Below, one piece after another: positions 2,974 to 37,185 of a DNA stretch of 64,000 bases. The DNA lies in the NCBI GenBank assembly GCA_038882975.1, contig JAVZNE010000001.1:256001-320000 (forward strand). The letters run 5' to 3'. The position numbers and the translations under genes were made by a program. Position 1 is the stretch's first letter. Each line of letters opens with the position of its first letter. The stretch comes from Candidatus Bathyarchaeia archaeon (GTDB lineage Archaea > Thermoproteota > Bathyarchaeia > Bathyarchaeales > Bathycorpusculaceae). The notes beneath the pieces are model-generated. The model searched no databases. It was not told the origin of the DNA and was given only the letters and a program-made list of their open reading frames with translations.

Positions 2974-3315
2974 ATGAGCGGCACGGTGCTTGAGGACAGT
3001 GTTTCTGAAGCCTTCCGTAAGAGGGGCTTCATAGTTTTTACAAGGCAGAACCACTGTGATGTTTTAGCTGTCAAGCCAGACATGAGTTTGGCTTACCTTG
3101 TGGAATGTAAGGATTACGCTTTATCTAGAAAACAACAGGTTTTGGCTGTTAGGGAGCTTAACCGCAACTATACCCATGCGCTGGAACTCTTGATAAAGCA
3201 GCGCTTATGCCCGCAAAAAATATTAAAGGTTCTTGTGGCACGAGGCTTCACTTACCAGGCAAGGGGCATACTGCAATACACTCCGGAAACTTTTATTGAA
3301 CATGTTTCCTCATAA
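2974..3315 (+). CDS. Small PD-(D/E)xK nuclease-fold protein (Hjc/Mrr-like)
   Basis: 113 aa; LE..V...F...GF, CDVLAV...LVECK catalytic-type motif. Confidence 0.65.
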   Translation: MSGTVLEDSVSEAFRKRGFIVFTRQNHCDVLAVKPDMSLAYLVECKDYALSRKQQVLAVRELNRNYTHALELLIKQRLCPQKILKVLVARGFTYQARGILQYTPETFIEHVSS

Positions 3316-3397
3316 AAGTGAGAGAAATCAGCTGTTGCTTGCAATAATTTCACAGTACCAAAATATGTTGCTTCGTTAGAAAAATATGGTGTTGCTC

Positions 3398-5572
3398 TTA
3401 TGACGGGCCCCACTGTGGGCTTGTTTTTCCGAAGTATTTGCAGACGAAGCCTAGGTCTTTGGCGTCTACTTTGCGGTCGTTGTTGACGTCTGCTCTGTAG
3501 CACCATCTTGGGTGGACTGGTGGGCCTGGGTCTGAGCCGAAGGCTTTTGAGGCTACTGCTATGTCTTTGCCGTCGACTGTGCCGTCATAGTTGACGTCGT
3601 AGGGTAGGTGGTTGTTTATTGGGTGTTCTGGTGTTGTGTCTTGTAGGGCGTGGGGTATGTAGTACCATTTCCAGAGGTTGTAGGCGTAAACGCCTGGATA
3701 GATTGGGTTGTAGTACCAGCCTACAACCCATGAACGCTCGAAGTGGCGGCTTATTGGCTGGATTATTGGCACGCTTGGGCAGTCTTCGATGGCTAACACT
3801 TGTATGTCATGATATATTTTGGCTCTATTCGGGCCATCAGGTGTGGCGGTGCCTTCTTCTATTAGTTCATCCATAATGAGGTTGGCATATAGTTGCCATT
3901 TAGTGAAAACTCCTTTACTATGGTAGAAGTTATAGGCGAAGTTGTGTGGGTCTGGATAATCGGCGAGCCACCCCATTGCGAATACTGGTATATAATGCCA
4001 TTGAATAGCTTCGATATAGGATATCCAACTTACATAGTAAATCTGCACGTGGAATTTGCTGTTTAGAGATTCAATACTTTGCTTAAGAGTCAGCGCAAAA
4101 TAATCCGGTGTGCTCCTCGGGACGGAAAGTATGGCTATCGTGAAGCCTGTTTCCCATAAGCCCGGAACCGCTTGGAATTCCTGCACTGCCCTTTCGGGGT
4201 TGCAGGCGTAGCCCTCCACGGTGGGGTCATAATATGGTAGGCCCGGTATTACAGTTGTCGCTGGGACTATTGCCTCGCCTGAGTAAGCATCTTGTACATA
4301 TCTTGTGTAGTTGAAGGCGTAGGCAAAAGCTCTCCTAACGTGTATGCCCCATGTTGTGTTACCAAAGAAATCCCTTGGTATGCCGTCCTCATGGAACTCT
4401 CCAGAAGGATACACCTTACCATATGGTGTGGTTGGATCCACATCAAATGTGAAGAATAAGCAATCCACTGCAAGAATTGGCAAAGGATATATGCATCTTA
4501 CACCAGGCTTATTTAAAACTTCGTTTATGTATTGCCTAGGGACAGCACAAAAGTCAAATTCTCCTGCCAAGAATGCGTCACGTCTCTTTGTCCACGTATA
4601 TGCCCAAGTTACGTTTATACGTTCAACCCATCCGGCAGGCTTTGACATTCCAAATGCTGGAAAATCTGCAGGCCAACCCCTCCAATAATCAACATTTCTC
4701 ACAGCAAACCAGTACATGGCTGAATAATCCAGCGTTTCAAGCTTGTATGGGCCTGTTCCACATGTTATTGGTGTTGGGTCATCTAAGGGCGATATTGCTG
4801 GGTTGTGGTAGTTTATCCAGTTTGTGTAGTCTCCCCATTCTCCATTCCACTCTGGACGACCCAATGTACCTATTACGTAGTTGTTTATCCAAGCTTTACT
4901 TATTATGCTTGACCAAGATTGGCAGAGAATCTGCATAAAAGGCGAATAAACGCTTGGGAAAGCAAGGTTAAACCATACATGGGTAGCGTTTGATTCAACA
5001 GCGTGGTCTATGGCTTTCCCAACGTTGATGACACCCTCTGTTGTGCTTAAGTTAAACTTTGGATCCAGTTCCACAAGCCCATAAGCACCCCAAGTGTTTA
5101 GCAACGGTTCATAAAACATCCATGTTGGGCCTGCCTCTCTGTCTTGGACCATGGCGCGTTCAAAGCTGTATTCAACATCTTCAGGCGTTAATGGGCTTCC
5201 ATCATGGAAGTAAACACCTGTCCTTATTTCAAAAATGTACCTACTATACCAGTGCAAGCCCTCCGGGCTTGTCTCATTAATTTCATGCCATGTCCAGCTC
5301 ACTGAAAGGCTTGGAAGAAAATTATCAACGCTTTCTCCGGTATAAGCTATTAACCTATCATAAACATTGTAAATCAGCTCGGCGCTAGCCGTGTCATAAC
5401 ACCATGCAGGGTCAACAGTTTCTGGCCAAGCACCTTCAATATTTGCAACCCTAAGTTCATAGGGCATATTTATTGGAGGTTGAGCCGAAGCGGGCAAAAG
5501 TCCCCATCCAAATAACAAACAAACTAACAAAGTTGTCGTTCTCAAAATGTTTCTCATTAACTTTCTCCTCAA
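3398..5572 (-). CDS. Family 5 (peptide/nickel) ABC substrate-binding protein with C-terminal dockerin-like domain
   Basis: Signal peptide; PETVDPA..YD, FHDGSPLTPEDVEYSFER, GTGPY, GWLADYPDP; tail DVNYDGTVDGKDI...DVNNDRKVDAKDL (two dockerin Ca-binding repeats). Confidence 0.9.
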   Translation of the reverse strand: MRRKLMRNILRTTTLLVCLLFGWGLLPASAQPPINMPYELRVANIEGAWPETVDPAWCYDTASAELIYNVYDRLIAYTGESVDNFLPSLSVSWTWHEINETSPEGLHWYSRYIFEIRTGVYFHDGSPLTPEDVEYSFERAMVQDREAGPTWMFYEPLLNTWGAYGLVELDPKFNLSTTEGVINVGKAIDHAVESNATHVWFNLAFPSVYSPFMQILCQSWSSIISKAWINNYVIGTLGRPEWNGEWGDYTNWINYHNPAISPLDDPTPITCGTGPYKLETLDYSAMYWFAVRNVDYWRGWPADFPAFGMSKPAGWVERINVTWAYTWTKRRDAFLAGEFDFCAVPRQYINEVLNKPGVRCIYPLPILAVDCLFFTFDVDPTTPYGKVYPSGEFHEDGIPRDFFGNTTWGIHVRRAFAYAFNYTRYVQDAYSGEAIVPATTVIPGLPYYDPTVEGYACNPERAVQEFQAVPGLWETGFTIAILSVPRSTPDYFALTLKQSIESLNSKFHVQIYYVSWISYIEAIQWHYIPVFAMGWLADYPDPHNFAYNFYHSKGVFTKWQLYANLIMDELIEEGTATPDGPNRAKIYHDIQVLAIEDCPSVPIIQPISRHFERSWVVGWYYNPIYPGVYAYNLWKWYYIPHALQDTTPEHPINNHLPYDVNYDGTVDGKDIAVASKAFGSDPGPPVHPRWCYRADVNNDRKVDAKDLGFVCKYFGKTSPQWGPS

Positions 5573-5824
5573 AGAGTTATATGAAAATGGTCAAATAAAT
5601 TTTACGCTAAAATTAATGAAAGGATATACCTGCTGGTTATAAAGCAAAAGTCAACACTCTTTCACAACTTTTAATGCCGTTTGATAATTAGGTTAAGTCT
5701 CTCTGTCCCGTGCCAGGTGCCTTTTTAAAAGGAAAAGCGCATCGAAAATCTTAGGATGTGGATGAAATTGATGATGTACAGCCTTTTATAGGAGCGAAGT
5801 AGTGTCGCGGTTTAATTCAAACAA

Positions 5825-5848
5825 TGGTGCTCGGCCGGGATTTGAACC
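5825..5848 (-). mobile_element. tRNA 3'-end fragment (T-arm, acceptor strand, CCA); probable att site relic
   Basis: Minus strand reads GGTTCAAATCCCGGCCGAGCACCA, similar to archaeal tRNA-Glu 3' ends but one nt short; the rest of the tRNA is absent. Confidence 0.75.
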
Positions 5849-5880
5849 GAAACAACAATGCTTGGAGATATCCCCATTAA

Positions 5881-6282
5881 ATTGAAAGGTTCGATGGCTG
5901 CTTCACAAAGGTGGTTCGCAATTACCGGTTTTATGATTATTAGTTTCACTTCATAAGTTTTGAAGCGGGGTTACGCGATATTAATGAAATTTCATGGACT
6001 CTGATATCCCTATTTACAATTCAAATAATTACTTTAATAGCAGCAATAGCTTTTATTTTCCTCGTAAACAAGAGATTTTTATGCATCATTCCAGCGGTCT
6101 TATGCCCCATAACCACGCTATTAATGATAAGTATAACTATGTGCCTGAACCAAACAACATTGGGCAGTTCCGACTATCAATTAGGCTATTGGCCAACATA
6201 TCCCTCAGAAGTGCTGTTCATAGCCAACATACTGGTAAAAAGCAAGAAGTTTACGAAAATCTCAAATAAAATCCGAGCGTAA
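5881..6282 (+). pseudogene. Decayed multi-pass membrane protein gene
   Basis: Frame starting at 5881 reads ...NYRFYDY*FHF...ISWTLISLFTIQIITLIAAIAFIFLV...DYQLGYWPTYPSEVLFIANILVK...IRA*; internal TAG at 5941-5943; no upstream start codon. Confidence 0.5.
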
Positions 6283-6321
6283 GATTCTTTTAAACGATGA
6301 CTAGAGAAATAGATGAGGGAT

Positions 6322-6416
6322 TTATGATGCTTTTCTTTTGCCTAGCCAAAGGATGATGCCAGCGATTATCCAGCAGATTATTGTGCTTACTGGTGTGAAG
6401 CTGCAGTGGGCGTAGT
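6322..6416 (-). pseudogene. 3' remnant of a membrane protein gene abutting the integrase relic
   Basis: C-terminal TM segment FTPVSTIICWIIAGIILWLGKRKAS*; the upstream part of the track ORF is just antisense of the integrase fragment. Confidence 0.35.
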
Positions 6417-6737
6417 AGAAAAGAAAAAGGATTGCAAGAAAGCTAAAACAATCCAAGAATGCTAAAAATAAGTCTGCACACTTTCCGCCATTGAAAAGGC
6501 ACAATAGAATATCATAAAACCAAAGACCTCTTATACGTCAAAAATGTTCTTGGACATAAAGATATAAAGTCGACTATGACCTACATAAACATTGAAAACG
6601 CTTTATCCCAGAACAGCAACGATGAATTTCATGTAAAAACAGCAAAAACCGTTGAAGAAGCAACAAAACTCATTGAAGTAGGCTTCGAATTCGTCCACGA
6701 ATTTGATGGCATCATGATATTTCGGAAAAGGAAATAG
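6417..6737 (+). pseudogene. Tyrosine recombinase/integrase C-terminal remnant
   Basis: RKRIARKL (frameshift) NPRMLKISLHTFRH*KGTIEYHKTKDLLYVKNVLGHKDIKSTMTYIN...KLIEVGFEFVHEFDGIMIFRKRK*; HxxRH, LGH and catalytic Tyr retained; TGA at 6492-6494. Confidence 0.88.
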
Positions 6738-6751
6738 TGTATTGCCATTAT

Positions 6752-6781
6752 GTCATAAATCCGAATAATAAGTCATAAATC
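6752..6781. promoter_or_regulatory. Direct repeat GTCATAAATC x2 (20-bp period) upstream of a wHTH gene
   Basis: Exact 10-mers at 6752-6761 and 6772-6781, just upstream of TATA-like TTTTAAG (about 6799-6805). Confidence 0.5.
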
Positions 6782-6836
6782 GTAATATAGGTTAAATCTT
6801 TTAAGCAGAATAGCCTATAACAGAAAGCGTGTTGGA

Positions 6837-7184
6837 GTGCTGATTTGGATGGTTGGGAGTGGGGAAGAGGAGAAGATTAGGCGTATATTGACGGATGCTA
6901 GGCTTTCGGCGATTAAGGCTATGTTGGAGAAGGACCACGCCATTGACTGTATTTTCCTATTGTATATGGGGCGGGGGAAGTGGAAGGAAGCGAAGGAGTT
7001 TATGAGGGCTAATGGGTTGACGCTTAGTGATGGCACTTTTAGGGCTAGGATGATGGAGATTGAGGAGCTTGGCTTAGCGAAAAGTGAGCGGTTAGACCCT
7101 TTGAAGAAGAAGTATGAGAAGACGGAGTTTGGCGACAAAGTTGCTAAACTTCTCATAGAGTTCTTTGACAAGCTTGGCGTTTAG
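6837..7184 (+). CDS. Winged-helix DNA-binding protein (HxlR/PadR-like)
   Basis: 115 aa; LSDGTFRARMMEIEELGLAKSE...KKKYEKTEFG recognition-helix and wing pattern. Confidence 0.7.
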   Translation: MLIWMVGSGEEEKIRRILTDARLSAIKAMLEKDHAIDCIFLLYMGRGKWKEAKEFMRANGLTLSDGTFRARMMEIEELGLAKSERLDPLKKKYEKTEFGDKVAKLLIEFFDKLGV

Positions 7185-7298
7185 GCTTTAGGCTTCTCCT
7201 CTTGGTTGTGTTGAAAGGGGCGAGAAAGGTTTCTGGTAATTTTCGATTTGTAGTTAGTTATATAAATGTCAATTTTGTTGCTGGTGTTGAACTGCAAA

Positions 7299-7552
7299 AT
7301 TGGTAGCCCCTCTCTAGAATTTTAGCGCTTAGGTTATATTTGTTGTTGGTTTGGCTTAGCAGATATGCTACCCCTCTATGGAATTTGGGCAGTTTTCTGG
7401 CACCATTTTCTCTACCCTCTCCCTCTAGGTTTTGTTACCTTGCAGGTCAATTTAGGAGCGCAGATGTTGTTAAGTTGGATACCTCTCTAGGATTTTTATT
7501 GTTGTTTTGGTTTGTGGGTGTGCCAATAGTGTCTAGCCTCTCTATGGTTTTG
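7299..7552. repeat. Array of five degenerate CCCTCTCTAG-R-TTTT motifs; dispersed repeat copy 1
   Basis: CTAG/CTAT cores at 7314, 7376, 7425, 7487 and 7542; 7445-7552 aligns with 30924-31025. Confidence 0.7.
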
Positions 7553-7662
7553 TGTGTTGTTTTGTTTTACAAATGGATAATATGGTGTATTAAGTCGTAA
7601 GATTTAAATTCTAAGCTTCCCCTAACATACACGATAACAAAAAGGGAGGGATATAAAAGAAA

Positions 7663-8106
7663 ATGAAAATGCTGAAGAGTAGGAAAGCCCTAAGCCCCGT
7701 AGTAGCATCCATCATCCTCATAGCCGTAACAGTCGCCGTCAGCCTAGCCGTGGCTGTATGGATGGGTGGACTAGCCTTCACATTCACAAAAACAGAAGAA
7801 CTAAAGATAACGGGTGCTGACTGGGTGGCTCCGTCTGGCGGAAGCAAATATGTGAACATCTCAGTGTCAAATACCGGCGCATCTGCGGTCTCTGTCTCTA
7901 AAGTATATATAGATAACGTACAATACTCGGTAGCTGGCTATAGTGGGTTTACATATGATTCTTCAACTGGTAGTTATACTTTGGCCAAAGGAGCGTCTGG
8001 TGTGCTCAAAGTAACCTTCCCCTGGTCTTCAAATCAAAAGTATACTATAGCGTTGCAAACAACCACTGGAAATAAGTACGAATATACAACAACAGCTGTT
8101 CCATAA
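7663..8106 (+). CDS. Archaeal type IV pilin-like protein (class III signal peptide)
   Basis: MKMLKSRKA/LSPVVASIILIAVTVAVSLAVAVWM prepilin (PibD/FlaK) motif followed by a Ser/Thr/Tyr-rich beta domain. Confidence 0.9.
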   Translation: MKMLKSRKALSPVVASIILIAVTVAVSLAVAVWMGGLAFTFTKTEELKITGADWVAPSGGSKYVNISVSNTGASAVSVSKVYIDNVQYSVAGYSGFTYDSSTGSYTLAKGASGVLKVTFPWSSNQKYTIALQTTTGNKYEYTTTAVP

Positions 8107-8201
8107 CAAACTGCAGACAACGTTGAGATTGGGGGTAGGGTGTTAGCTGTTTCCAAAATTTTCCCCTATTCTATTGTTCCATGTTGGAGGTGTAAAATCG
8201 T

Positions 8202-8627
8202 ATGGTAGTGGAATTGAAGGAGTATGCTTCGGCTGAGGACATAGCCGAAACCCTGGAGAAGCAGATAGCCGAAACTAAGAGCACTTTGGGCGAGTACCTG
8301 CGCCGCCTAGACGAGATTAGGGCACTAGCCGAAAAGTCTAAGAAAATCCGAGAAGTGGTTATGAAGTTGGCTGGGAAGAAGGCGGCTGCCGAAAGCCTTG
8401 GCGAAATAACAGTTGGCAGTTTAAGTATTGTTTTGGATGCCAACCCATTCCACGAGCTGACAGCCATAGAGCAGGTAGTCCGAAGCTATCAGGAGAGGCT
8501 TCTGGTCTTGCAGAAAGCACGAGAAGCCCTAAAATGGCTTGACCAGCTAGGAGACACTGAAGGCTTAAAATACATTGTTGTTGAAAACGACGGCGTTCCA
8601 GAGCGCATCCTATTCAAAATAACATAG
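8202..8627 (+). CDS. Hypothetical coiled-coil protein
   Basis: 141 aa with GGAGGTG SD; long amphipathic helices; co-oriented with the roadblock genes. Confidence 0.75.
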   Translation: MVVELKEYASAEDIAETLEKQIAETKSTLGEYLRRLDEIRALAEKSKKIREVVMKLAGKKAAAESLGEITVGSLSIVLDANPFHELTAIEQVVRSYQERLLVLQKAREALKWLDQLGDTEGLKYIVVENDGVPERILFKIT

Positions 8628-31056: not shown

Positions 31057-32172
31057 ATGGGTAAATGCCGAGTCTGCGGTGAAAATTCGCCTTTAATATC
31101 TGGGAATTTGGGCGTCTGCCTAAAATGTATTAGGAAAAAACCGGAAAAAGCCCTAGAAGTCGCAAGGGAAGCCCATGCAAATAGCCGTACCGTTTATGGT
31201 TTGCCCCCAGAACCACCAAGAGATGAGGGTGGACTGCCATGCGGTGTTTGCGCCAACAACTGCATTATAGGTGGGGGTAATAGTGGCTTTTGTGGGCTTG
31301 TTTGGAATGTTGGAGGTCGCCTCATCCGTTTCGGCGGAACAGCCGAGCAAGGTGTCTTGGAATGGTATTATGATGGGTTGCCCACCAACTGTGTGAGCTG
31401 GTGGTTTTGTCCCGGCTGCACTGGCAATGGTTATCCAAAATACGCTTACAAGCCGGAACCAGAATATGGCTATTACAATTTGGCTGTTTTTTACGGCGCA
31501 TGCAGTTATGACTGCCTCTTCTGCCAGAACTGGCATTATCGCAATCTCTCAGCCAAACACAAGCCAGTTATGAGCGCCGAAGCCCTAGCCCAAAAAGCCT
31601 TCGACAAAAGGGTTTCATGCATATGCTATTTTGGCGGAGACCCTTCGCCCCAGATGCCGCACTCGTTAGAGGCAAGCCGCATAGCCCTAGAAAAAGCCGA
31701 AGAGGAAAAGCGAATAATGCGAGTTTGCTGGGAAACCAACGGCTACATGAACCCAAAACTGGCGGAGAAAGCCGCAGAACTAGCCCTAAAAAGCGGGGGC
31801 AACATAAAATTCGACTTAAAAGTGTGGAGTGAGCCACTAGCCATAGCCCTATGTGGAGTATCCAACAAACCATCCCTAGAAAACTTCAAAATGATAGGCG
31901 AAAAATACTATGCGAAACGCCCAGAACTGCCAGTCCTAACAGCAAGCACACTGCTTGCGCCGGGATACGTGGACGCAGAAGAAGTCGAAAAAATAGCCCA
32001 ATTCATAAGCCAAATAAACCCAGAAATCCCATACACGCTTCTGGCGTTTTACCCATGCTACGTCATGAACGACTTGCCAACCACAAGCAGAAAACAAGCA
32101 ACAGAATGCCAAAAAGCAGCCCAAAAACACCTAAAAAATACAAGAATAGGAAACATACACCTACTATCTTAG
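31057..32172 (+). CDS. Radical SAM protein (PFL-activase-like) with N-terminal Cys clusters
   Basis: CSYDCLFC (CxxxCxxC), FGGDP, WETNG, DLK. Confidence 0.9.
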   Translation: MGKCRVCGENSPLISGNLGVCLKCIRKKPEKALEVAREAHANSRTVYGLPPEPPRDEGGLPCGVCANNCIIGGGNSGFCGLVWNVGGRLIRFGGTAEQGVLEWYYDGLPTNCVSWWFCPGCTGNGYPKYAYKPEPEYGYYNLAVFYGACSYDCLFCQNWHYRNLSAKHKPVMSAEALAQKAFDKRVSCICYFGGDPSPQMPHSLEASRIALEKAEEEKRIMRVCWETNGYMNPKLAEKAAELALKSGGNIKFDLKVWSEPLAIALCGVSNKPSLENFKMIGEKYYAKRPELPVLTASTLLAPGYVDAEEVEKIAQFISQINPEIPYTLLAFYPCYVMNDLPTTSRKQATECQKAAQKHLKNTRIGNIHLLS

Positions 32173-33266
32173 ATAAACTCCGACAATTTTTTCTGACTTT
32201 CAGGTATAGTCTCACCTCGTATTGGCTTTGGTCTTCCGATCCTTCTCTTTTCTTTTTTCAATAGAGATATACATCTCCTTGCAAGCTTTCGACAAATCAC
32301 TTCTTGTATTGGTCTTCTTGTCCGTAAAGTAGGGATAGGAATCTTCCACCAATCAGGTTTATCATATGATTTCCAGCATAATCTTAATTCGTATAACTTT
32401 TCTAAGGCATCTTTTATCCACTTTCTTTTAAGTTGAATTGTTTCCGCATCAAATTTGTGCCAAGATGGGAAAAACGCTTTTGCCCGCTCATATATCATGT
32501 CTACATGAATATCATAAAGTTTCTTTTCGGGATCACTTTGAAATGTAGGGAAAATGTTTTGTATTAAAATGTGGATGGTATATTGCACAGGCGGTGTTTC
32601 CTTTATAAACGTAAATAGGAAGCGGAGGTAAGTTAGAACTTCTTCTGGAAAAATTAAACCTAATGGTTGGCTTATCAGATTTTGAAGTTTTTCGTTGCGT
32701 GTCTTTCCATAAACACCAAACAATCGCATTTTTTCCTCACGTTCTCCCATTTTGGACGGAGTAATCGTCCACGTCCAAATAGCAAATCCATCTTTGGTTA
32801 AGAAATCATAATCTGGATCTCTAGATACTTTCTGAACAGCTTTAATTACACGCTGGGCATCATCGGGATGGCATATCAAAATCAAATCATGAAAATCTAC
32901 ACTATGAGAAGGAGAGAGCCAGTTTGAACAAGGGACAGTATACTTTTTTAACTCTTTGATTTCTTTCTCCAATAGGGATTCTTGTTGGGGCAAGGACCAT
33001 TTTAACTCAAAAAGCAACCCCTTTCGATCATTATCAAAAGTGGCAACCAAGTCGGGCGTTATGCTTTCTCCTTGATTATTTCTTAACTTATGTTCTATCC
33101 CAATAAATTTTGCAATATCGGGGTTATGGATAAGAAAGTGATAGATTGCACACGAGATAGCAACGGTATCTGAATATCTTCTGTAATCTCTTACGCAATT
33201 CTGCTCGATTTGTCGATGATCGAGCAATGATCTACCCCAAAATACTCGTGATTTCCCCGTCTCCAA
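32169..33266 (-). CDS. PD-(D/E)xK nuclease-domain protein with probable C-terminal wHTH; candidate defence effector
   Basis: ITPDLVATF...LLFELKWSL...ELKKY motif; AT-rich DNA unlike the flanks. Confidence 0.65.
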   Translation of the reverse strand: METGKSRVFWGRSLLDHRQIEQNCVRDYRRYSDTVAISCAIYHFLIHNPDIAKFIGIEHKLRNNQGESITPDLVATFDNDRKGLLFELKWSLPQQESLLEKEIKELKKYTVPCSNWLSPSHSVDFHDLILICHPDDAQRVIKAVQKVSRDPDYDFLTKDGFAIWTWTITPSKMGEREEKMRLFGVYGKTRNEKLQNLISQPLGLIFPEEVLTYLRFLFTFIKETPPVQYTIHILIQNIFPTFQSDPEKKLYDIHVDMIYERAKAFFPSWHKFDAETIQLKRKWIKDALEKLYELRLCWKSYDKPDWWKIPIPTLRTRRPIQEVICRKLARRCISLLKKEKRRIGRPKPIRGETIPESQKKLSEFI

Positions 33267-34326
33267 GGATTTCTTGAATTCTATTTGTTAGCTTCCACGT
33301 GGCTTGAGAAGTCCCTTTTGTGATGGGTGTTATCGTGACAGATTTTCCGAGGGCTGTTACTCCGAAAGATGAGCCTTCTTGGTAATCGCATAATATCGCA
33401 ACAAAGTATGGATTTCCGCCGTGTATAATCGAACATGAATATATTTTACTGATTTTTTTTGCCAGTCTTTGAAGTTGTACTTCATCCAATTCAAACGGAT
33501 ATTCTATACGAAGCGGTCTGATTAGTATTTTTCCTTCTTGTATTATTCGCTCTCGATGCCCATAGAAATTTTTCCATTTTAAGCCAAGTTCAAGTGCGTT
33601 TTGAATAACATTTTTGTAGAAAGCGGAAAAGCTTCCAAACCTTAACTTACAGACCCCTCTCCGAGAAATTTGGGCTTGAAGAAGAACGATACCTTCTTTA
33701 TTTTTAACTTCAAAGTTAACCATGTCAACAATTACTCGATAAATCTCTGACTGTTTTCTCAGCTCTTCCTCAGCATTTTCTTCCCATAATTGAACGGTTC
33801 CTTTTAGTTCCCTTTTGTGCTGCTCACGATAACTTTCTGGATATTTGGGGGCTCTTTTTATAATAAAAAATGTTAACGTTGTCTGCCCTTTATAAGCTTC
33901 TTTTATTCGGTTTAGTAAGGTCTGCAGCTTAAAGTAATTAAGATATAATCGCGAAATATTTGGGTATAACCCGGTGAATAATCTTTCTAAAGCGCGTTTA
34001 ACGAAATACGATTGCTCATTGCAAAAAATTACCCACATGTTTTTAAAACTTGTATCAATAAGGGCACATCCTGAGACGATCTCTCTCCAAACAAGTCTTT
34101 TAATGTTTAATCTGTATAAGTTATCGTCAAGTCTGGTTAAATTGACATTATAAAGCTTTGCTAACTTTTTCCTCCTTTGCACGCAATCTTTTAACTCTTC
34201 CGGTTCGATCTCCGAGAACAAAAGTATCGCTTTAAGCGAAGGACGCTTTTGCCTTGTGGCGTATAGTTTCTCAAAGAAAATATTCATGTCAAAACGGCTC
34301 GAGATTTGACTTGTCAACCTCTCCAA
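33232..34326 (-). CDS. Hypothetical protein, operon partner of the nuclease
   Basis: 364 aa, overlaps the downstream gene, AT-rich; C-terminal HGGNPYF...DYQEGSSF...ITP block; TATA box TTATATAAG at 34348-34356. Confidence 0.65.
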   Translation of the reverse strand: MERLTSQISSRFDMNIFFEKLYATRQKRPSLKAILLFSEIEPEELKDCVQRRKKLAKLYNVNLTRLDDNLYRLNIKRLVWREIVSGCALIDTSFKNMWVIFCNEQSYFVKRALERLFTGLYPNISRLYLNYFKLQTLLNRIKEAYKGQTTLTFFIIKRAPKYPESYREQHKRELKGTVQLWEENAEEELRKQSEIYRVIVDMVNFEVKNKEGIVLLQAQISRRGVCKLRFGSFSAFYKNVIQNALELGLKWKNFYGHRERIIQEGKILIRPLRIEYPFELDEVQLQRLAKKISKIYSCSIIHGGNPYFVAILCDYQEGSSFGVTALGKSVTITPITKGTSQATWKLTNRIQEILGDGEITSILG

Positions 34327-34443
34327 TGTATTTCCCCAGACAGCCCGTTATATAAGTGCATAATTAATCTTAATAAATTCAATGCTACAATTACACAAAA
34401 ACTTTGCGCCTGCCACATTTGTATGACGTTTGTTCAAACGAAT

Positions 34444-34632
34444 TTATAGATGATCCCGCTTTATTTTCAGATCTTTTTCCCATTCTTCTGCGTTTTCAAA
34501 CCATAGTTCGAAGGCTTCTTGGAAGTTCTTTAATGCTTCGTCGATGGTTTTGCCTTGGCTGGCAACTCCTGTAACTGGGTCGATGGCAACATACCATTCG
34601 TCCTCTTTATGTATAGCAACACTAACCCTCAT
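34444..34632 (-). CDS. hicB: HicB-family antitoxin domain, orphan
   Basis: WYVA.DP.TGVASQGKTIDEALKNFQEAFELW; no hicA adjacent. Confidence 0.8.
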   Translation of the reverse strand: MRVSVAIHKEDEWYVAIDPVTGVASQGKTIDEALKNFQEAFELWFENAEEWEKDLKIKRDHL

Positions 34633-34685
34633 AATAGACGACCAAATACATTATATGTTGTGAATCGTATTAACATTTCACAAAC

Positions 34686-35366
34686 TTAAGATAAAGGATA
34701 ATCGATGTGGTATATTTTGCCTTTTCCATTGTCATAGAGCTTAGTGAAATAGGCTGGATGCAGTTCCTCGTCAAATATTAGCCTTAACAGCGTCGTTTGG
34801 CAGCCGAGAGGTGTTGGTTGATACTGGTTGTCTGTGTAAATTAGATAGTCTGTGGCGTTGTAGCCTGCGATGTGGGCTATCCAATAGTACTTTTGCAGCT
34901 CGTCTGGAACGAAGACTAAGACGTATGCAACATTGTATTGTCTCATTAGTTGCAGGGACTGCTGTTCTGGGAGCATAAACATGGTGGCTATATCACAGAT
35001 CTTCTCGTGGGAGCCCCATTTCCCGAAAATTTGGGCTTCAAAGCTGTGCAGCGGGTCTCTGCTAACGCCAAGAGTGTACCATATTTCCCTTGAGGGGTAA
35101 GCCTCTATAACCTCCCTGTGGCTCCATTCGCGCACTGCCCTGCCGTAATCCCACCAGCAAAGCACCACAGAGCCTTGAGGCGTAAGCTCCTCAAGTTTGG
35201 CAAAGGCATCCGGCATCCCCTCCTGCTTAGAAAAGTATTCGAGAACTTCGTCCTCTCTCCTGCCATAGTCTATTCTAAAAGCTATAAAAACCAGAGAAAC
35301 GGCAATCACAACGACTAGTAGGGCGATGAACCATTTGCTCCTCCAAAACTTTGCAACCATAGGCAT
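34686..35366 (-). CDS. Membrane-anchored stand-alone STT3/AglB C-terminal core domain
   Basis: Single TM, then VLCWWDYG, YNVAYVLVF, ELQKYYWIAHIAG (DK-motif-like), QTTLLRL. Confidence 0.8.
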   Translation of the reverse strand: MPMVAKFWRSKWFIALLVVVIAVSLVFIAFRIDYGRREDEVLEYFSKQEGMPDAFAKLEELTPQGSVVLCWWDYGRAVREWSHREVIEAYPSREIWYTLGVSRDPLHSFEAQIFGKWGSHEKICDIATMFMLPEQQSLQLMRQYNVAYVLVFVPDELQKYYWIAHIAGYNATDYLIYTDNQYQPTPLGCQTTLLRLIFDEELHPAYFTKLYDNGKGKIYHIDYPLS

Positions 35367-35403
35367 CTCTCTAAAATGGTGGGAGATAAAATCTATTAAG
35401 GTT

Positions 35404-37185
35404 TTATGCCGCCCAGAAGGGCACTTTCTTCCGCATTAGGCTGACATACTCATTTAGGGCTTCCTGCTCGTCCGGAGTTAGCTTGTCCATAAAGTTTTTC
35501 AGCAGTGCTTTGGCGTGTTGTTCTGGCACCTTCACATAGAGAACATCCTTCTCGAATATGTGTCTTCCAACCATGGGCTTGTCTAGGCTTATGGCTACCT
35601 GCATACCCTGCCTAGCCTCTGGTAGGGCTTTGCCCTTCTCTTGGATTTGTTGTATTTCGCCCACCTCTTCGCCGTCTTCAGCCCTTATTAGGCTTGTTTT
35701 GGGCTTTATTCTTCCAGCCAAGACTTCAACGCCCACTATGGCTGGTTTGGCTCTTCTGAAAACGTAGCCCTCTAAAATCCGGATTTTGCCTGGCTTGACC
35801 AGTTTTTCGAATTCGGCTTCAATTTTGGCTTCTCTTTGGGTTTTAAGCCAAGAAAGATAGTTGTCTATCAAGTGGTAGATTATTTTTTCCTTAAAGATTT
35901 GGACGCCAATGTTTTTGGCTTCTTCATTGGCGTCTGGCAAAATTTTAACGTTGAAAGCTAAAATGGCTCCGTAGAAGGGCTCATGCTCCTTCACAATAGC
36001 AGCCTCTGTAACGTCCCGTTTTGAAACGTCGCCAACATCCGCCAAGCGAATGGGCACACCGTTCCGCCTAAGGTTTTCCGCTATAGCCTCTAAAGAGCCC
36101 AAAGTGTCAGCCTTCAAAACAACGCCATCCACATCCGTCGTAATCCTAATCCTCTCAATTTCTTCAGAGACAAGCCTAACATACCTTTCAGGGTTTTCGC
36201 CATCCCCAACAGCATATAAGGGCGCGCCAGCCAAGGCGCCCTCCAAGTCTGGGGCAACAATTTTAACGCCAGCCGCAGCGGAAACGGAATCCACAGAGGA
36301 AAATTTGTCCCGTGGGTCTCTAATCTCGTCTAGAGGCTTTGGTACTAGGATGGCTCTAACCCGTGTTGTTATGGGCTTCTCCTTACCGCCAACAACTATC
36401 AGGTCGTCTTTCCGCAGTGTTCCGTCATAAATTATTGTGTTGAGCGTTAAGCCAAGACCAGGCTCCTCTTTAACTTCGAGAACCGTGCCTTTAGCTGGTC
36501 CAACTGTGGTTTGTAAACGCTTCTTTAGGTACTGCTGAGTTAAGCCTACAAGAACTGCTAAAAGCTCTGTTATGCCCTCGCCTGTTTTGGCGCTTGTAGG
36601 CACAATAGCCACTGTCCGCGTGAAGTCCTTTATGCGGTCGAAGCGGTCAGCCCTAAAACCCAAACGCGAAAAAGTGCCAATAATCTCGTAAAGGCGGTTG
36701 TCCAAATCCTCCTGCACATACTTGTCCTGAAGCTGGTAAGCCTTCAAAAAGGGCGTATCCGGATAAGAGTTCCAGCCAGGTATGCGGTCAATTTTGTTGG
36801 CAGCCACGAGGAAAGGCGTCTTCCGAGCCTTCAAAATCTCAATACACTCATAAGTTTGAGCCTCAAAACCCCGAAGAACATCAATGACAAGGATGGCGAT
36901 ATCAGCTACGCTGCCGCCCCGCTTACGGAGATTAGTGAAAGCCTCATGCCCCGGAGTATCAATAACCAGCAAGCCCGGAATCTCAATCTCACCCTTAATG
37001 GTTGAAAGCAATGGACCAATCATCTGCTTCAAGGTTTCAACTGGAAAGAAGCTGGCGCCAATATGTTGTGTTATGCCCCCAACCTCGCGGGCTTGAACAC
37101 TTGTCTTGCGAATCTTATCCAAAAGAAGAGTCTTACCAGTATCCACATGTCCAAGAACACAGACAATAGGCTGGCGAAGCGACAT
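35404..37185 (-). CDS. infB: Translation initiation factor aIF5B (IF-2)
   Basis: RQPIVCVLGHVDTGKT, GGITQHIGA, DTPGH, NKID, KADTLGSLEA. Confidence 0.97.
   Translation of the reverse strand: MSLRQPIVCVLGHVDTGKTLLLDKIRKTSVQAREVGGITQHIGASFFPVETLKQMIGPLLSTIKGEIEIPGLLVIDTPGHEAFTNLRKRGGSVADIAILVIDVLRGFEAQTYECIEILKARKTPFLVAANKIDRIPGWNSYPDTPFLKAYQLQDKYVQEDLDNRLYEIIGTFSRLGFRADRFDRIKDFTRTVAIVPTSAKTGEGITELLAVLVGLTQQYLKKRLQTTVGPAKGTVLEVKEEPGLGLTLNTIIYDGTLRKDDLIVVGGKEKPITTRVRAILVPKPLDEIRDPRDKFSSVDSVSAAAGVKIVAPDLEGALAGAPLYAVGDGENPERYVRLVSEEIERIRITTDVDGVVLKADTLGSLEAIAENLRRNGVPIRLADVGDVSKRDVTEAAIVKEHEPFYGAILAFNVKILPDANEEAKNIGVQIFKEKIIYHLIDNYLSWLKTQREAKIEAEFEKLVKPGKIRILEGYVFRRAKPAIVGVEVLAGRIKPKTSLIRAEDGEEVGEIQQIQEKGKALPEARQGMQVAISLDKPMVGRHIFEKDVLYVKVPEQHAKALLKNFMDKLTPDEQEALNEYVSLMRKKVPFWAA

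Follow-up and report, generated by a model that had tools for sequence, protein, structure and literature searches.

What kind of module is a compact, AT-rich pair of genes that sits among the core genes of an archaeal chromosome and is missing from most of the host's relatives? The question is raised by a stretch of 64,000 nucleotides (nt) on contig 1 of the genome of a hot-spring member of the Bathyarchaeia (G000; the whole stretch is called the window below), in which the core genes nearby encode a thermosome, an aIF5B-like GTPase and Topo VI A and B. The first-pass annotation, made from the sequence alone, had proposed two genes of this window, here gene 1 and gene 2, as an antiviral module. 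The safest description is a conserved, horizontally moving two-gene operon, encoding a predicted PD-(D/E)xK nuclease effector and a basic partner that likely binds nucleic acid. Beyond this, the pair may be a nuclease-based conflict system, most likely serving innate immunity against invading DNA (viruses or plasmids); this reading is favoured here tentatively, with slightly more room to be wrong than right. The two open reading frames (ORFs), taken from the ORF list of the window, are:

33232-34326, minus strand: gene 1, 364 amino acids (aa), TTG start
32169-33266, minus strand: gene 2, 365 aa, TTG start

The structure model of gene 2 has a predicted local distance difference test (pLDDT) score of 90.8 and a predicted template-modelling (pTM) score of 0.85, and divides as follows:

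32667-33185, minus strand: residues about 28-200, restriction-endonuclease-like (PD-(D/E)xK) domain
within 33000-33095, minus strand: candidate catalytic residues E58, D72, E87 and K89, proposed from their invariance
32322-32612, minus strand: residues about 219-315, winged-helix domain
32172-32312, minus strand: residues about 319-365, a helix followed by a low-confidence Arg/Lys-rich tail with a net charge of +9

When compared with known structures by VIA-align, residues 28-200 match AF2093 (Z 7.6), AF1548 (7.4), XisH (7.3-7.4) and Bax1 (7.1), and further down Can2/Card1 (6.7), NucS (6.5) and FokI (6.2-6.3). These Z values are middling, but the PD-(D/E)xK fold dominates the match list, and E58, P71, D72, E87 and K89 are invariant in 49 homologs. 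Residues 219-315 match MukE (Z 8.0-8.4), a chain of JetABC (6.6-7.2), Z-alpha domains (6.0-6.3) and histone H1/H5 (6.1), while the tail, with a pLDDT of 67-69 in its last three blocks, shows the consensus GRxRxKPxRPK. The modelled folds and the invariant motif support the earlier assignment of gene 2 as a predicted PD-(D/E)xK nuclease with a winged helix-turn-helix (wHTH) domain; the motif spacing given with it, PD-x12-ELK, had to be corrected to PD-x14-ELK.

Gene 2 is strictly coupled to gene 1. Word-based searches returned 98 clusters of gene 1 homologs and 123 of gene 2 homologs, in which Bathyarchaeota/Bathyarchaeia are the sole organism names. Seven loci from species-representative genomes and 80 from metagenomes, minus seven duplicates, gave a set of 80 loci (L numbers below); the metagenome scan sampled close relatives. 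In 70/80 loci gene 2 lies directly downstream of gene 1 on the same strand, at a distance of -67 to +20 nt. Sixty of these are full-length, six are cut by a contig end, three are split or truncated and one is a degraded remnant (L056, L070, L095 and L083 are the disrupted loci); decay and disruption are typical of accessory genes. The other 10 contigs end 0-271 nt from gene 1, and no locus with at least 300 nt of room lacks gene 2. The co-occurrence on which the first proposal depended is thus found in 70/70 judgeable loci. For the 57 complete pairs, pairwise identity in one protein tracks that in the other with r=0.94, a value that 0 of 999 permutations reach; because related sequences share ancestry, this correlation shows co-inheritance and nothing more.

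Despite this tight pairing, the distribution is patchy. Both genes occur in 2 of 61 related genomes, namely the host itself and G032, a member of another genus of the same family, and the pair was not found in the 13 other genomes of the host's own genus, six of which are at least 90% complete. Phylum-wide, the close-family profile detects 1 of 401 genomes and the broad profile 2, the second being a marginal fragment in G046 (E=8e-4, 39 positions). No flanking gene family is common to the window and the other loci; among the loci themselves, common families are restricted to L002/L004, which are probably from the same genome, and to three families in single locus pairs. The composition also differs from the surroundings. 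The pair has a GC fraction (guanine plus cytosine) of 0.370 compared to 0.459 for the window, where only 0.3% of all 2.16-kilobase (kb) segments are lower, and it constitutes the most AT-rich 2.2 kb of the window. Among 37 loci with at least 3 kb of flank, the pair is AT-richer than the flanks in 31, by up to 36 points in L049, which could be a chimeric contig or a very recent transfer. The picture of an AT-rich, co-oriented, foreign-looking and patchy cassette drawn from the window therefore holds, with regard to composition (GC), distribution (2/61 and 1/401 genomes) and the empty sites described below.

The GC fractions of pair and flanks are 0.27 and 0.63 in L049, 0.31 and 0.50 in L009, and 0.27 and 0.43 in L097. 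The sole other part of the window with a GC fraction below 0.40 (in 2.16-kb segments) lies at about 4600-5800 and overlaps a 724-aa ORF at 3398-5572 (minus strand). Some sub-lineages keep the same gene next to the pair, i.e. PCNA (L008, L090), peptidase S9 (L009, L064) or UDG (L032, L071), and the pair can therefore pass vertically for some time after insertion.

Evidence for mobility comes from the insertion site, which is defined by the following features:

32173-34471, no strand: stretch absent from the related genome G010, which carries hicA instead (blastn of flanks, junction sequences)
31057-32172, convergent with gene 2: radical SAM gene (Pfam Radical_SAM, E=7e-14)
34444-34632, minus strand: orphan HicB-like gene, 62 aa (PF15919, E=1e-6; DUF7387, E=2e-9)
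34356-34348, minus strand: TATA-like element C-TTATATAA, with its centre some 26 nt ahead of the gene 1 TTG (34326)

In G005, whose flanks are 96-97% identical to those of the window, blastn places about 25 base pairs (bp) where the window has 32173-34682. In G013, positions 32172-35410 are replaced by about 24 bp, and a neighbouring 226-aa gene is missing as well. G010 carries hicA (PF07927, E=3e-18) convergent with hicB at this site and aligns to the window from 34472 onward only. The HicB protein of the window matches that of G010 up to '...NAEEWEK' and differs thereafter, with the recombination junction at about 34472. Because the two HicB proteins match and then diverge, the arrival of the pair must have removed hicA and clipped the 3' end of hicB. 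The window contains no hicA (the ORF list has none at 32169-34700), and both family matches bear out the orphan hicB noted at the outset. In G010 (L017), hicA at 3019-3261 (plus strand) and hicB at 3258-3518 (minus strand) are convergent with overlapping stop codons, unlike the usual co-oriented operon. The 226-aa gene beside hicB (34686-35366, minus strand) has a weak match to the STT3/PglB core (E=0.049). It is present in G005 and G010, not in G013, and is skipped in metagenome contigs with joints to 35395 and 35411; as it is itself variable, the hotspot has at least four alleles.

The same polymorphism is seen in hot-spring metagenomes (X1, possibly the source sample, X2 and X3), for which contigs were matched at 85% identity or more and may thus derive from related species as well as strains. 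The flanks reach summed depths in the hundreds, compared to 44 (X1), at most 4.7 (X2) and about 0 (X3) for the pair. Contigs that skip the pair join 32168 to 35395 (depth 90.7) and 32136 to 35411 (depth 185) in X1, and 32160 to 35411 (depth 20) and 32172 to 34686 (depth 10.7) in X2, the last with a 28-nt filler like that of G005. X2, which stems from another study, also contains near-identical pieces of the pair, with one difference in 698 nt. Filled and empty sites coexist in hot-spring populations, and carriers are the minority.

No inverted or direct repeats bracketing 32173-34471 were found, and transposon-like ends were rejected for this reason, a short 'AGATAAA' at both junctions being too weak. 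The indel contains no integrase or transposase, no tRNA gene lies nearby, and an Rfam scan of the hotspot returned only a chance match to a microRNA model (E=0.34).

The gene boundaries agree with an operon. The longest ORFs overlap by 35 nt, as initially described, while starting gene 2 at residue 14 (33227), as database entries do, gives a 352-aa protein and a gap of 4 nt; the claimed overlap thus depends on the start chosen, but the genes form an operon with either one. The TTG at 34326 is supported as the start of gene 1, because homologs keep its 13 N-terminal residues (consensus ..I.DR.SM). The element C-TTATATAA, reported earlier as a TATA box at 34348-34356, can be read there and is promoter-like in sequence and position. 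At the other end, the stop codon of gene 2 (32169-32171) overlaps that of the radical SAM gene, in agreement with the original description.

Gene 1 is more difficult to assign. Its model (pLDDT 87.3, pTM 0.87) is mixed alpha/beta according to DSSP, which corrects the earlier view of a beta-rich protein, and consists of two parts:

33568-34302, minus strand: residues about 9-253, two basic TBP-like modules resembling RdgC and CENP-L
33235-33555, minus strand: residues about 258-364, C-terminal alpha+beta module with the motifs H-GNPY, D..DGSS, (I/V)P and (E/D)G

With an isoelectric point of 9.6 and a net charge of +20, located mostly in the N-terminal modules, the protein likely binds nucleic acid, judging from the model and its charge; the label 'sensor' in the first-pass annotation is an inference. 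By VIA-align, residues 9-253 match CENP-L (7pkn_L) with a Z of 6.9 over 193 aligned residues and a root-mean-square deviation (rmsd) of 5.8, and RdgC (2owl_B) with a Z of 6.3 over 195 residues and an rmsd of 6.0. Foldseek assigns the match to RdgC (2owy_A) a probability of 1.00, yet the TM score is 0.31-0.35 and the rmsd about 9 Å. In a viral structure library, 8 of the top 28 rows are recombination-associated (RdgC) proteins of phages, with probabilities of 0.97-1.00 and TM scores of 0.27-0.36. The Pfam RdgC family gives no sequence match to gene 1 at E up to 1; the same scan returned only Glyco_hydro_20 (E=0.2) and Ribosomal_L30_N (E=0.43). Gene 1 thus appears to be built of TBP-like alpha/beta modules with an overall shape that resembles RdgC, and since the structural scores are middling, 'RdgC-like' denotes a resemblance and not family membership.

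The C-terminal module is the most distinctive part of gene 1. It matches COR, KA1, AdoMetDC and TBP-type domains with Z values of 7-8.8 (VIA-align). G304, N305, P306 and Y307, G318, S319 and S320, T331, T333 and P334, Q351, and G355, D356 and G357 are invariant in 47 sequences, which bears out the GNPY/GSS block singled out by the first reading. The motifs GNPY, DGSS, TPI and QEILGDGE are invariant among the close family, and N305, P306, D314, S319, P334 and G357 persist down to about 20% identity. A pyruvoyl enzyme with a self-cleaving serine had been considered for gene 1, prompted by the AdoMetDC-type match (2iii_A, Z 7.5) and the invariant GSS. This idea was dropped, because the homolog on plasmid pNG100 reads T-N at this position and many non-enzymatic domains match the module equally well.

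None of the models of Pfam, NCBIfam, PADLOC and PHROGs matches either protein, toxin-antitoxin families included; the best result is a sub-threshold PAS_3 (E=0.0014). The PADLOC check, for which no hit had been expected, was negative: at E up to 1, neither protein matched a family of PADLOC-DB v2.0.0, which covers Shedu, Hachiman, Gabija and Lamassu. Against sequence profiles of PDB entries, gene 1 had no match and gene 2 stayed at noise level (E about 0.7). The family scans detected no methyltransferase or ATPase domain in either protein, in agreement with the description as free of nucleoside triphosphatase (NTPase) and methylase, and the Pfam scan showed no modified-base reader domain of known type. 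A cognate methyltransferase is also absent from the unit, as the indel comprises gene 1, gene 2 and hicB only. A viral origin of the pair was rejected: 2.9 million viral contigs contain no relatives, and in 50,697 phage records gene 1 had no match and gene 2 matched only two fragments, both at chance level (E 0.3-0.5).

The claim that no named system matches stands for PADLOC, Pfam, NCBIfam and PHROGs; it is qualified by feature-based look-ups in the ESM Atlas. The nearest clusters of gene 1 carry MJECL33 (PF25924) and AF_0896_M (PF27341), with a score of 0.95 and 217/256 features, and gene 2 is placed beside a cluster with 30% MJECL32 (PF27326) members (score 0.92). All three are uncharacterised archaeal families of Pfam 38, and this feature similarity, which is the extent of the likeness, points to gene families that are not entirely uncatalogued. 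If MJECL32 and MJECL33 are, as we presume from their locus tags, neighbouring genes on an extrachromosomal element of M. jannaschii, they would mirror the pairing seen here. A literature search of limited reach found no paper describing the gene pair and no relevant paper for MJECL31-34, AF_0896 or AF0896; for RdgC linked to anti-phage defence or a nuclease, no RdgC paper was among the matches listed. The excerpt of PMC6393860 contains nothing specific about the gene pair.

Among described systems, KELShedu is a functional analogue. According to the excerpt of PMC12577705, it combines the double-stranded DNA-binding protein KELA with the DUF4263 PD-(D/E)xK nuclease KELB and is triggered by NTP depletion. 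On that partial description, both systems comprise two genes, one for a DNA-binding protein and one for a PD-(D/E)xK-type nuclease, without NTPase or methylase (PMC12577705), and SduA (8ps5_A) is found among the weak Foldseek matches of gene 2 (E=0.018). However, the Bathyarchaeia pair matches neither Shedu nor DUF4263 in PADLOC and Pfam, and it is distinguished by the RdgC/TBP-like fold of gene 1, by the C-terminal wHTH and basic tail of gene 2, and by its archaeal lineage. Other PD-(D/E)xK nucleases with DNA-binding additions share the core fold and the E...PD...ExK signature with gene 2, and gene 2 resembles modification-dependent enzymes in having no cognate methylase. It differs from them in belonging to no named family by sequence, in the order of nuclease and wHTH, and in its obligate 364-aa partner. 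Mrr-type Type IV restriction enzymes are presumably a further functional analogy for gene 2. In comparison with RdgC (2owy/2owl), gene 1 is similar in its overall alpha/beta architecture and is strongly basic, but it has an extra, highly conserved C-terminal module and always a nuclease partner, and the TM scores are low. HicAB shares the chromosomal hotspot, as seen in G010; the window keeps only a 3'-clipped hicB, and the pair is unrelated to HicAB in sequence and size.

A second comparison concerns the 'RdgC histone' operon of Halobacteria and Bacillus, which, in the part of PMC11390915 covered here, consists of a histone, an RdgC-like protein and a winged-helix/transmembrane protein, with no function given. 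The RdgC-like protein described there has extra N- and C-terminal domains and is followed by a winged-helix partner (PMC11390915), and the order on pNG100, where the gene 1 relative precedes a partner of 376 aa and a membrane-like protein of 216 aa, is similar to this description. No histone gene accompanies the pair, and the operons were compared by description.

The wider family was reached by a profile search with gene 1, which retrieved 521 representatives at E of 0.001 or below, 314 of them at 1e-10 or below. The best 150 of the 521 are 83-396 aa long and therefore show no fusion to another domain. Named relatives are hypothetical proteins of Aenigmatarchaeota and Thaumarchaeota/Nitrososphaerota. 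By tblastn, relatives of gene 1 were found on six plasmids; the close-family profile matches all five that are full-length (36-74 bits), and the broad profile matches the one on pNG100 with E=1e-65. On all six, a co-oriented partner gene adjoins the gene 1 relative:

Halosegnis plasmid: gene 1 full-length; partner 355 aa, hhalign 92%, E=8e-7, 268 columns, keeps 'TPDF...GEIK'
Haloarcula pNG100: gene 1 full-length; partner 376 aa, family profile over 286 columns, E=3.5e-4, probability 37%
Natrinema plasmid: gene 1 full-length; partner 358 aa, weak motif-level match to the gene 2 profile
Halosimplex plasmid: gene 1 full-length; partner 361 aa, weak motif-level match to the gene 2 profile
Arthrobacter NicSoilB4 plasmid: gene 1 full-length; partner 344 aa, weak motif-level match to the gene 2 profile
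Arthrobacter J3.37 plasmid: gene 1 annotated as a 114-aa fragment; partner 343 aa, 10.5 bits in two collinear segments

Since the plasmid relatives keep an adjacent partner, the two-gene layout is conserved in archaea of at least two phyla. The pNG100 copy (L099, Haloarcula marismortui) is part of a three-gene operon at 5695-8606, in which the third gene encodes the 216-aa protein with four hydrophobic, membrane-like stretches; this operon may be an effector-swapped version of the module. In Natrinema (L104, 2994-4379) and Halosimplex (L106, 2992-4314), a co-oriented hypothetical gene of 440-461 aa precedes the gene 1 relative by 72-76 nt, an arrangement that suggests a three-gene variant. ParA or ParB is encoded next to the pair in Natrinema, in Arthrobacter NicSoilB4 and in L004.

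Some loci provide genuine examples of proximity to defence genes. A complete Type I restriction-modification system adjoins the pair in L026, and HsdR, HsdM or a methyltransferase is found near it in L003, where HsdR is the fifth gene downstream, and in L022, L024 and L025. In L004, a PLD-SNF2 helicase and a Type IIG methylase adjoin the pair. In L041 (4159-14160), the pair is located between an HmaC-type AAA+ ATPase (DUF499, PADLOC E=1e-147) and a TmtA-like protein of 1146 aa (E=2e-108). Further neighbours are LmuB (L097) and PrimPol/DRT (L081), and a DUF1156 gene adjoins the Halosegnis plasmid copy. Pfam identified a phage portal gene beside L005, an integrase three genes from L054 and an MNT-like nucleotidyltransferase (L087). 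Overall, matches to PADLOC models at E of 1e-10 or below account for 22/185 flank proteins (17/139 + 5/46), counting up to three ORFs per side, slightly more for genome-derived loci; the 139 include the second half of the split gene 2 in L070.

The pair shows several hallmarks of conflict systems, i.e. patchiness, foreign composition, a toxin-antitoxin hotspot, presence/absence polymorphism, plasmid carriage, occasional decay and partial proximity to restriction-modification genes. If it is such a system, gene 2 would be the effector, a metal-dependent PD-(D/E)xK endonuclease held on DNA by its winged helix and basic tail. Gene 1 would be the obligate partner, in which nucleic acid would be bound through the two basic RdgC/TBP-like modules, while the conserved C-terminal module would touch the nuclease or act as its gate. 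DNA would then be cut only when it is in a certain state, for example when it is foreign or modified, or at ends or replication intermediates. As neither a methylase nor an NTPase is involved, the discrimination between self and non-self would have to lie in the recognition by gene 1. What we infer is that gene 1 binds DNA, that the two proteins form a complex, that gene 2 is an active nuclease and that the pair serves immunity.

A number of results weigh against this interpretation. Only 14 of 57 loci have a PADLOC-model match in their flanks, 13 without the generic radical-SAM/pVip match in L048, which is a modest share. Among 57 other proteins of the window, a single-window control, three match PADLOC models at the same threshold, all of them generic-looking, and a Fisher test of 17/139 against 3/57 gives p=0.20. 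Because of this value, and because several loci are close relatives (L019/L020, L025/L026, L078/L081), the association with defence genes is suggestive but not demonstrated. In many loci the pair has housekeeping genes around it (EF-2, PCNA, thermosome, ribosomal protein S9, POR). Neither protein matches a PADLOC model even at E up to 1, and neither has relatives in the viral contigs and phage records searched. The structural matches of gene 1 are middling, with TM scores of at most 0.36 against PDB chains and Z values of at most 8.8, a range in which no more than a common arrangement may be reflected. Finally, the pNG100 partner has P-T and D-V-I at the aligned catalytic positions, and nuclease chemistry may accordingly be less than universal in the wider family, as far as aligned residues can tell. 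For the first-pass annotation this means that its check on defence-island proximity found matches in 14/57 loci and no significant excess over a small control. The immunity module proposed there retains its nuclease fold, strict pairing and patchiness; immunity itself is not established, the proximity to defence genes is modest and many flanks are housekeeping.

A wider claim, rather doubtful at present, is that the pair is the founding example of an NTPase-free immune class that spans phyla (Bathyarchaeia and Halobacteria, possibly also Methanobacteriota and Actinomycetota) and combines an RdgC-like clamp with an exchangeable effector. The clamp would recognise invading DNA by its structural state, for instance by ends or replication intermediates, and then license the effector. 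This would be an active PD-(D/E)xK nuclease in the window and on the Halosegnis plasmid, and a catalytically altered partner together with a membrane protein on pNG100. A similar exchange of nuclease and membrane effectors is seen in other defence families.

An addiction module of the toxin-antitoxin type is a less likely but live alternative to a conflict system directed against invading DNA. In such a module, gene 2 would be a nuclease toxin and gene 1 its neutraliser, and the pair would persist in plasmids and chromosomal hotspots because its loss kills the cell, and not through any effect on viruses. The strict pairing with the presumed neutraliser encoded first would fit, as would the replacement of hicA at a site that carries hicA/hicB in G010, the carriage on haloarchaeal and Arthrobacter plasmids with ParA/ParB adjoining in Natrinema, NicSoilB4 and L004, and the fact that gene 2 is the one split or truncated in three loci. 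However, both proteins have about 360 aa, far above the sizes of classical type II toxin-antitoxin systems, gene 1 is large, strongly basic and multi-domain rather than a small labile antitoxin, and no toxin-antitoxin family is matched by either protein. Close relatives often have an empty site, which means that the loss is tolerated, if only in the course of evolution. The distinction is not sharp, as many abortive-infection systems act like toxin-antitoxin pairs and addiction therefore overlaps with defence.

Less probable still, though likewise a live alternative, is a module that serves the recombination or maintenance of mobile elements. In it, an RdgC-like DNA-binding modulator of recombination would act with a nuclease that processes DNA when plasmids or proviruses replicate, resolve or integrate, and the chromosomal copies would be leftovers of these elements. 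RdgC and RdgC-annotated phage proteins are the best whole-chain matches of gene 1, the plasmid copies beside partition genes and the phage portal gene next to L005 and the integrase three genes from L054 would agree with this, and an operon of an RdgC-like and a winged-helix protein is described for Halobacteria and Bacillus in the excerpt of PMC11390915. On the other hand, exactly two genes are present here and in most loci, without an integrase, a replication gene or terminal repeats, and the flanking genes vary between loci. There is no Pfam RdgC sequence match, and 2.9 million viral contigs and 50,697 phage records contain no relatives. A host housekeeping factor for DNA repair or chromatin with an odd composition is very improbable, since, although many loci are embedded among core genes and neighbours such as PCNA (L008, L090) and peptidase S9 (L009, L064) are kept in sub-lineages, the pair is not found in 59/61 related genomes, including 13 of the same genus (six at least 90% complete), occurs in 1/401 genomes phylum-wide, is a clean indel between genomes with 96-97% identity and is carried by a minority of the population.

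To our knowledge, little of archaeal immunity has been mapped beyond CRISPR and restriction-modification, and it was in bacteria that the majority of the known systems were defined. The pair described here is a compact, strictly paired and mobile module, which joins a confidently modelled nuclease to a partner of unusual fold and involves neither an NTPase nor a methylase. If it restricts foreign DNA, it would represent a new recognition principle, and the question would become what the RdgC/TBP-like protein senses. Cultured haloarchaea (Halosegnis, Natrinema, Haloarcula) carry plasmid relatives, which makes a defence role testable now. If the pair serves addiction or recombination instead, two uncharacterised protein families would still gain a concrete genomic behaviour.

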